Of a stretch of 64,000 nt of DNA, positions 58,166-58,348 are shown in pieces; positions within the stretch are counted from its first letter, which is position 1; the number at the start of each line of letters is the position of its first letter. Below the pieces are notes generated by a model. It saw only the letters and a list, made by a program, of their open reading frames with translations, ran no database searches and had not been told where the DNA came from. Made by a program: the position numbers and the translations under genes. The DNA is from an uncultured Gammaproteobacteria bacterium. GTDB lineage: Bacteria; Pseudomonadota; Gammaproteobacteria; JACCXJ01. The stretch spans positions 192,001 to 256,000 of the forward strand of contig CAVXTM010000010.1 in assembly GCA_963764725.1 (NCBI GenBank), given 5' to 3'.

Positions 58166-58348
58166 AATGTATTTCGGACTGTGGGGGCTGGTGGGCATCA
58201 ATCCACAGACCTTTGGTTGCGGTGCGGCAGCTCGTCCAGCCCTTGGGACATCAAGCCCGTGGGAGAGCAAAGAGCGTCGCGCCGTTTTCTCACCGACAAC
58301 CCGAACGGTTGCTGGGGCCTGTAAGCCCGTATTTTTGCAAGGAGGGGT
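58166..58348 (+). ncRNA. Putative IS110 bridge RNA, copy 2
   Basis: 5' hairpin CTGTGG/CCACAG, a target loop with CCAGCCCT and GGGAGAG, and a donor loop with ACGGTTGCT and CAAG. Confidence 0.78.

Follow-up and report, generated by a model that had tools for sequence, protein, structure and literature searches.

The non-coding DNA at 58166-58348 of the window (the whole stretch analysed here, 64,000 nucleotides long) is, we believe with high confidence, the body of a bridge RNA that belongs to an IS110-group element of the IS621/ISCro4 type, and whose mode of action we infer from IS621. Guide motifs in this stretch match the target DNA and the ends of the element, the stems covary across orthologues, the guides themselves change together with flanks and ends, and the catalytic residues of the neighboring recombinase are conserved. 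Every testable defining feature of an IS110-group bridge system appears to be present in the sequence, and the element is an ordinary case of the IS110 family that involves no new mechanism. The preliminary description of this DNA had read it as an IS621-type bridge RNA with a CT core and a REP-like target, represented by two independent insertions in the window; the genomic copies, the covariation and the homology of the recombinase all agree with that reading.

The left end of the element is long and non-coding and its right end is short, as is typical of the IS110 group; in the IS1111 group the arrangement of end lengths is the opposite, according to the accessible part of PMC11208160. Aligning all genomic copies together with their flanks places the start of the left end proper, TGTATGTTCTATTTTGTAGAAATTAATGAAAATG..., immediately 3' of the target CT. 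Uninterrupted, the full element measures 1,178 bp, with a left end of 213 nt and a right end of 17 nt. In the window copy studied here (c1), the left end consists of 57082-57111 plus 58166-58348 and is split by an IS1595-family element, which is why the left flank CCAACC-CT lies at 57074-57081, away from 58166. The right end after the stop codon occupies 59297-59313, and c1 closes with ACGGTTG-CT (59305-59313), followed by CTCCCGC. The features of this copy and its surroundings are:

57066-57081, plus strand: left half of the REP-like target, CCCTCACCCCAACC-CT, with the core CT at 57080-57081; this left half, in N6 variants, borders five of the six genomic copies
57082-59313, plus strand: IS110 element c1, split by an IS1595-family element; the true left end is 57082
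57082-57111, plus strand: first 30 nt of the IS110 left end, TGTATGTTCT..., with the right-donor bases TGTA and a -10-like TATGTT at 57084-57089
57112-58157, minus strand: nested IS1595-family element of 1,046 bp, with a transposase ORF at 57141-58115 (minus strand) and terminal inverted repeats ACGGGCTATCCACTT...
58166-58348, plus strand: rest of the left end (positions 31-213), very probably the bridge RNA body, extending from the 5' hairpin as far as the stem that closes the donor loop
58349-59296, plus strand: recombinase gene (315 aa), whose product combines a DEDD RuvC-like domain with a Tnp domain that bears the catalytic Ser
59293-59313, plus strand: right end; a -35-like TTGACT (59293-59298) shares bases with the stop codon, and the left donor ACGGTTG with its core CT is at 59305-59313
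59314-59334, plus strand: right half of the REP-like target, CTCCCGCAAGGGGCGAGGGAG, adjoining the right end

The transposase ORF of the nested element matches PF12762 (2.7e-31) and PF12760 (5.2e-12), the element is surrounded by an 8-bp target duplication, TTAATGAA, at 57104-57111 and 58158-58165, and a second copy of it was found in the genome. To its left, 57082-57111 has the same sequence as the left end in the copies without this interruption, c2, c3, c4 and c6. The insertion lies after left-end position 30, 3' of the left terminus and of TATGTT and 5' of every structured RNA module; 58166-58348 therefore holds a complete RNA body, yet c1 is not an intact element.

The source genome holds six copies of the IS110 element, with the following positions, left targets and states:

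c1, window 57082-59313, plus strand: CCAACC-CT, then CTCCCGC; interrupted by IS1595
c2, window 2795-3965, minus strand: CCCGCC-CT, then CTCCCGC; gene disrupted (8 bp deleted, 1 bp inserted), bridge RNA intact at 3748-3897
c3, contig C9:87205-88382: CCAACC; intact
c4, contig C18:199153-200330: CTAACC; intact
c5, contig C18:73691-74906: CTAGCC; gene intact, left end variant
c6, contig C18:332586-333766: left flank ...GGTGCGGT; several frameshifts

The recombinase gene is thus broken in two of the six. Both target strings given for the window in the preliminary description, CCAACC-CT-CTCCCGC for c1 and CCCGCC-CT-CTCCCGC for c2, are correct. Five copies share one REP-like palindrome, CCCTCAYY-N6-CT/CTCCC-N4-GGGAGAGGG, and the sixth (c6) has the right half-site alone. 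CTCCC stands to the right of all six; a conserved extension, CCCTCACC, lies upstream of the six left-target bases in five; and the core CT both precedes the left end and closes the right end in five, the left end of c6 following GGT. Other copies in unrelated targets would, according to the preliminary description, have refuted its reading; the outcome favors that reading for five of the six, and the sixth keeps the correct right half-site. The insertion point falls within the 5' arm of the palindrome, CCCTCTCCC-N4-GGGAGAGGG, which has a conserved 5' extension. In its strict form, the REP-like family comprises 15 empty and five occupied units in the source genome. These roughly 20 units are far fewer than those of classical REP families.

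The left flank of c6 is unrelated to the canonical target. A guided event at this flank was considered and found no support, the match by eye being 3/8 to the left target guide and 4/9 to the donor guide. A tRNA-Val duplication of ~195 bp flanks c6.

The nested insertion raises the question of whether c1 is a disabled relic, immobile and making no bridge RNA of its own, a view that concerns this copy and not the family. The IS1595-family element puts 1,054 bp between the RNA modules of c1 and its left terminus with the -10-like TATGTT; if the RNA modules are cut off in this way from a promoter formed at the element junction, it would follow that c1 makes no bridge RNA. In line with this, the uninterrupted left end showed no promoter of its own: a scan of an integrated, uninterrupted copy (L014 1350-2800) for sigma-70-like promoters gave none, and a terminator scan of it likewise gave none. 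Against the relic view, c1 has intact recombination ends, RNA modules and recombinase gene, none of which differ from those of c3 and c4. RNA and protein could also reach it in trans from three other intact copies, as demonstrated for IS621 in the portion of PMC11208160 at hand, and read-through from the nested element is conceivable. We consider it possible, though less likely than not, that c1 is such a relic, and we suggest that it probably depends on RNA and protein from the intact copies c3, c4 and c5.

The recombinase has the domain structure expected of the IS110 family, a DEDD RuvC-like N-terminal domain and a C-terminal Tnp domain with a catalytic Ser, and the 315-aa protein matches PF01548 (4.9e-22) and PF02371 (8.3e-18). 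Its best match among solved structures is the ISCro4 transposase (PDB 9t56; E 1.7e-40, residues 8-311), and the IS621 transposase (PDB 8wt6) is matched at E 1.1e-34. Residues D13, E57, D99, D102 and S237-G238 are invariant in our protein alignment (A1), and they align to the motif residues of the 326-aa IS621 protein, listed as D11, E60, D102, D105, S241 and G242 in the accessible text of PMC11208158.

Within 58166-58348, a 5' hairpin is followed by two stem-loops with internal loops, which is the architecture of a bridge RNA. The parts, all on the plus strand, are:

58179-58208: 5' hairpin CTGTGG...CCACAG, from the minimum free energy (MFE) fold
58219-58285: predicted target-binding stem-loop, with an outer stem of 58219-58228 and 58230-58233 against 58272-58285 and an inner hairpin of 58245-58248 against 58255-58258
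58235-58243: predicted left target guide TCCAGCC-CT, of which CCAGCCCT is 58236-58243
58260-58267: predicted right target guide TGGGAGAG, reverse complement of CT-CTCCC(A), of which GGGAGAG is 58261-58267
58299-58348: predicted donor-binding stem-loop, with an outer stem of ACCC 58299-58302 against GGGT 58345-58348 and an inner hairpin of GGGC 58315-58318 against GCCC 58325-58328
58304-58313: predicted left donor guide AACGGTTG-CT, the same sequence as the element's right end with the core, of which ACGGTTGCT is 58305-58313
58336-58341: predicted right donor guide TGCAAG, able to pair with CT-TGTA where core and left end meet, given one G.T wobble, of which CAAG is 58338-58341

The four short motifs singled out in the preliminary description (CCAGCCCT, GGGAGAG, ACGGTTGCT and CAAG) are all at the positions it gave, its GGGC/GCCC hairpin is present in the donor loop, and the outer stem of the target loop, put there at ~13 bp, has 14 pairs with one bulged A and is present in both the MFE and the centroid fold. 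The left target guide runs in the sense of the left target and core, and would therefore pair with the bottom strand. From 58196 onward the sequence is identical in all six genomic copies; c5 carries a 28-nt insertion in the loop of the 5' hairpin. ACGGTTGCT occurs five times in the window against 0.33 expected, a count reached by none of 100 shuffles, and four of these sites belong to the two window copies, as donor guide and right end (58305 and 59305; 3788 and 2795 on the minus strand). The fifth occurrence, at 15050, is unrelated.

The folding energy of 58166-58348 is no better than that of shuffled sequences (z = -0.10; 86 of 200 shuffles fold as well), and the case for the RNA therefore rests on comparative evidence, the folding energy being left unused. 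A search of Rfam at gathering scores gave no match at the locus, and with E values up to 1 no family was matched on the strand of the element; Rfam 15 may or may not include a bridge RNA family. An opposite-strand match to sX15 (21.9 bits, against a gathering score of 55) was taken as chance.

For the comparison, a scan of one genome per species gave 591 relatives, of which the best 80, with 51-83% identity and from many phyla, were kept. The donor-guide pattern together with enough upstream sequence was present at 61 of these 80 loci, the other 19 being without the pattern; five of the 61 were exact duplicates, leaving 56 distinct stretches. The RNA alignment (A2) comprises 44 orthologous loci and the window stretch, 45 rows in all. 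The 12 distinct stretches left out (L066, L078, L086, L089, L096, L097, L101, L104, L108, L117, L120 and L131) were mostly close relatives of rows that were kept, as judged by eye, and L066, L104 and L108 looked rearranged. The structure was drawn from the fold of the window stretch together with the alignment and consists of the 14-pair outer stem (with its bulged A) and then three helices of four pairs each, namely the first inner hairpin, and the closing stem and inner hairpin of the second stem-loop.

In A2, the proposed structure is paired in 93.5% of 1,164 cells, compared to 34.4-48.6% when the 3' partners are slid by 1-3 columns. Compensatory changes on both sides are seen at 19 of the 26 pairs, and none of 500 shuffles attains the observed value on any of five measures. 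Helix 1 (14 pairs) has changed on both sides at 12 of its pairs and is paired in 91.7% of cells, helix 2 (four pairs) has changed on both sides at three and is paired in 95.6%, and helices 3 and 4 are paired in 94.4% and 96.7% of cells, respectively. The G.U pairs fit the strand of the element only, as with the UG found in 13 sequences at pair 27-77. GCAAG, on the right donor side, is nearly invariant across the alignment.

The covariance model built on this structure (R1) matches the window at 58204-58353 with 113.7 bits and an E value of 6e-29. In the source genome R1 finds nine loci, each directly upstream of an IS110-type gene or a remnant of one: the six copies, a paralogue on contig C11, and two loci beside gene remnants on C2 and C5. 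The intact, 59%-identical paralogue has its RNA at C11:179499-179647, and its guides fit the flanks of its own locus, which are different: GTTGCGTC-CT stands against GTTGCATC-CT on the flank, and CGCCGAG against CT-CGGCG. Among the 80 related loci, R1 matches 79, the exception being L111; seed sequences match by construction, and of the 19 non-seed loci, 15 have a full-length match beside the gene, L076 a weak one, and L099 and L121 one that lies ~1.2 kb upstream.

The guides can also be compared with the DNA that they would read. The right target guide was taken as the 3' side of the first loop, before an invariant GC, and is the reverse complement of CT plus the bases after the right end. 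Of the 45 rows of A2, 42 allowed the right end to be placed, and the left-flank count took 38. The right guide agrees with the right flank of its own locus at 5/5 positions in 27 of the 42 rows, at 4/5 in 11, at 3/5 in three and at 2/5 in one, which gives a mean of 4.52 out of five; shuffled pairings average 1.48, and the highest of 1,000 shuffles reached 2.05. There are 37 distinct right guides. For the left guide and left flank, the mean over 38 rows is 6.08 out of eight, compared to 4.33 for shuffled pairings and 4.84 for the highest of 1,000 shuffles; this mean counts the window row at 1/8, from an internal TGTAT, where the true left end gives 7/8. At five of the 38 loci the left guide matches just 4/8, and at four of the 42 the right guide matches 3/5 or less.

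On the donor side, the guide equals the right end of its own element in 41 of 42 loci, in four variants (ACAGTTGC, ACGGTTGC, ACAGCTGC and ACCGTTGC). There is some circularity in this test, since that same match served to place the right end; an anchor independent of it is TTGAC, which keeps a distance of 21 nt to the end in 36 of 43 orthologous loci.

These data bear on the view that DNA is recognized by the protein alone, the left-end motifs being subterminal protein-binding repeats with no guide RNA involved. The non-significant fold energy agrees with such a view, the donor-side motifs are conserved as protein sites would be, and the RNA is predicted here from DNA sequence. However, the stems stay paired through compensatory changes and through G.U pairs that fit one strand, the 37 right guides each predict their own flank, which would be impossible for a fixed protein site, and the recombinase is homologous to two enzymes that have been solved in complex with a bridge RNA. 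We therefore regard recognition by protein alone as very unlikely. That the left end is a mere 5' UTR controlling translation of the recombinase is extremely improbable, even though the ribosome-binding site is covered by the stem that closes the donor loop (GGGT at 58345-58348 abuts the ATG and overlaps GGAGG at 58341-58345), since incidental matches to targets and ends would not covary with the flanks in 42 loci, nor with the right ends. A translational role could exist alongside the guide role.

The bridge RNA reading also makes it possible to ask how closely the guide fits the targets available in this genome. A perfect site for the left guide, CCAGCC-CT-CTCCC, is found at none of the 560 N6-CT-CTCCC sites genome-wide. 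Nine of the empty REP-like units differ from the left guide by one mismatch and six by two; of the five canonical occupied sites, four have one mismatch, one has two and none is perfect. The guide is one mismatch away from four REP variants, CCAACC, CCCGCC, CTAGCC and CCTGCC. It is tempting to speculate that the left guide is kept one step from every available site, as a "centroid" guide, and if this were general, REP-targeting bridge RNAs would be tuned in this way, trading efficiency for breadth or limiting their own copy number. An offset of this kind also separates the guide of IS621 from its natural target, according to the accessible part of PMC11208160. We consider the idea unlikely, though not negligible. 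Our own check lends it little support: the mismatches in the orthologues fall chiefly at the outer positions (21/34 at -8 and 12/34 at -7, with one to four each at -3 to -6), a recount that took the left-end motif best fitting the guide and so favors the guide reading, and mismatches compatible with wobble pairing are not clearly enriched (11 vs 7 for the left guide, 4 vs 3 for the right).

Based on IS621, we suggest the following sequence of events, in which transcription, RNA ends and recombination activity are all presumed. The element would excise as a circle, and the circle junction would unite TTGACT of the right end, a 17-nt spacer and TATGTT of the left end, an arrangement that we read from the sequence by eye, into a promoter for a transcript of ~200 nt from the left end. 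This transcript would start near left-end position 15, run to the ATG, and form the 5' hairpin together with two stem-loops that both contain an internal loop. The donor guides AACGGTTG-CT and TGCAAG, in the second of these loops, would pair with the two sides of the donor junction ACGGTTG-CT-TGTA. The 315-aa DEDD/Ser recombinase would then exchange strands beside the CT core, the natural target being the 5' arm of the small REP-like palindrome family.

Left-end positions 61-172 are covered by contigs from RNA library X15 and positions 36-186 by contigs from X16, in both cases with no differences and with the target loop region included; strand and transcript ends are invisible in such contigs and carry-over of DNA is possible, and we take the coverage as a weak hint that the bridge RNA is expressed. 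No circle junction or excision joint was found in the contigs of four public runs (X1, X2, X15 and X16); contigs can miss such joints, and the result thus says nothing on their absence.

Thousands of natural bridge-RNA elements of this family have already been predicted. The element described here, or close relatives of it, may figure among the predicted bridge RNAs of PMC11208160. What our analysis adds is one well-documented natural bridge-RNA element, and what is known of the mechanism is unchanged. With six copies, ~20 target units and 44 aligned orthologous loci whose guides covary, it is a handy data set for the rules of guide length and mismatch, and as a small orthologue (1,178 bp, with a 315-aa protein) it is a candidate for recombination assays.

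Two points that the preliminary description had put forward as possibly new do not hold up as such. The "compact" protein is just 11 aa shorter than that of IS621, which has 326 aa in the accessible text of PMC11208158, and mismatch tolerance is already seen in IS621, whose natural target differs from its guide (G vs A) in the available part of PMC11208160. Recent papers also deal with the targeting of REPs, with hairpins in targets, with IS110 loci that are nested or expanded and with boundaries that match by half, in the portions at hand of 10.64898/2026.03.19.712850, 10.64898/2026.08.14.744561 and 10.64898/2026.08.31.748434.

Among the known systems with solved structures, ISCro4 (PDB 9t56, as given in the PDB listing) has the same domain order, with a deposited chain of 341 aa compared to 315 aa here. 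ISPpu10 of Pseudomonas putida is also an IS110 element, with all insertions in one repeated intergenic palindrome and, as here, a target able to form a stem-loop, according to the accessible part of 10.64898/2026.03.19.712850. In the ISPpu10 hairpin described there, a 5' extension pairs with the left target, whereas in our case the palindrome CCCTCTCCC-N4-GGGAGAGGG extends from the two final bases of the left target across the core and over the right target, which puts its loop 3' of the insertion point. The expanded and nested IS110 loci and the half-match boundaries treated in the available portions of 10.64898/2026.08.14.744561 and 10.64898/2026.08.31.748434 have counterparts here: c1 carries foreign DNA, a second IS, within its ends, and c6 has one canonical and one non-matching boundary beside a duplication. 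Movement of c1 as a composite, or a half-match origin of the c6 boundary, would be speculation.

The closest parallel is with IS621 of E. coli, as far as the accessible parts of PMC11208160 (Durrant et al. 2024) and PMC11208158 (Hiraizumi et al. 2024) describe it. Our element is known from sequence alone, its recombinase is roughly a third identical to that of IS621 (315 aa here, 326 aa in IS621), its left end has 213 nt compared to 191 bp, and its REP-like target family is small, with ~20 units; in its clade, the pairing of the left guide is well kept over the ~4-5 core-side bases alone. Both have a DEDD and Ser recombinase, with the RNA in a long left end upstream of its gene, and in both RNAs a 5' hairpin is followed by two stem-loops that contain internal loops. 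The two share a CT core and a REP-like natural target, and where IS621 divides a promoter between its right and left ends, our element has a putative counterpart, read from the sequence. In both, finally, the natural target and the encoded guide differ as G vs A; for IS621, ATCGGGCCTAC is encoded and ATCAGGCCTAC is found, as reported in the available text of PMC11208160.

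The element's usual target, N6-CT-CTCCC, lies within a REP-like palindrome. In the soil-metagenome run X1, a contig that bears the IS passes from the element's right end into sequence that, in the present genome (G000), is the right flank of an empty REP unit:

Contig C15, script offset 148239, minus strand: empty REP unit compared with the X1 contig

We take this, tentatively, to suggest an insertion polymorphism, the comparison consisting of one contig with 32 loose letters. The window itself has an empty REP-like site, CCTCCC-CT-CTCCC, at 59382-59394 on the minus strand; oriented opposite to the window copy, this site is about 70 bp away from that copy's right end and differs from the left guide at two positions. 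Elsewhere in the window, positions 10257-10292 match the Rfam CRISPR direct repeat CRISPR-DR16 with 36.7 bits (gathering score 35).

Two of the six copies in the genome, c5 and c6, have unusual left ends or surroundings:

Contig C18, 73691-74906: copy c5, with variant left end
Contig C18, 332382-333960: copy c6 and its surroundings (loci L006 and L141)

The right junction of c6 is canonical, while its left end adjoins ...GGTGCGGT. This copy is flanked on either side by a duplicated segment, about 195 bp long, which includes a tRNA-Val(GAC) gene (332391-332585 and 333767-333960), the two segments being 98.9% identical over 175 aligned nt; the left one begins with an intact empty REP unit, CCTGCC-CT-CTCCC. 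The arrangement could go back to a tandem duplication after which one IS was precisely excised; alternatively, unequal crossover or a half-match event could be its origin.

In c5, the left end carries a 10-bp duplication of its terminal bases (TGTATGTTCT TGTATGGTTCT...) and a 28-nt insertion in the 5' hairpin loop, after left-end position 60. A contig of the RNA-library run X15 (record 8) follows left-end positions 61-172 without differences, and diverges exactly at the c5 insertion point.

Besides c1-c6, the genome holds three additional bridge-RNA loci, which come from other lineages:

Contig C11, 179499-179647: bridge-RNA locus
Contig C2, 154596-154745: bridge-RNA locus
Contig C5, 113504-113651: bridge-RNA locus

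The one on C11 belongs to an intact paralogue, 59% identical, whose own flanks are matched by its guides; the other two lie beside a truncated recombinase gene and a degenerate gene, respectively. In addition, a lone junction at which AACACGGTTGCT meets CTCCCGG is found at C16:335863 (minus strand), with no IS sequence upstream of it, and a fragment at C11:16361-16502 shares 86% identity with the final ~150 bp of the blastn query, which comprise right end and flank. Each of the two may be what is left of a copy that was lost or rearranged.

Among the related loci from other genomes, L110 and L127 have a left guide that ends in AT and a left junction that is likewise AT; the right end nonetheless closes with CT, so that the dinucleotide is not the same at both junctions.

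The IS1595-family element at 57112-58157, nested in the left end of the window copy, has a second, 100% identical copy on C18, interrupted near its position 1010 by ~1.25 kb of other DNA:

Contig C18, 86259-87270 and 88522-88561: second IS1595-family copy, split in two

At two related loci, L099 and L121, the bridge-RNA model finds its full-length match ~1.2-1.3 kb upstream of the gene for the recombinase, and at L121 a second, partial match adjoins that gene; these may be nested insertions, as in the window copy.
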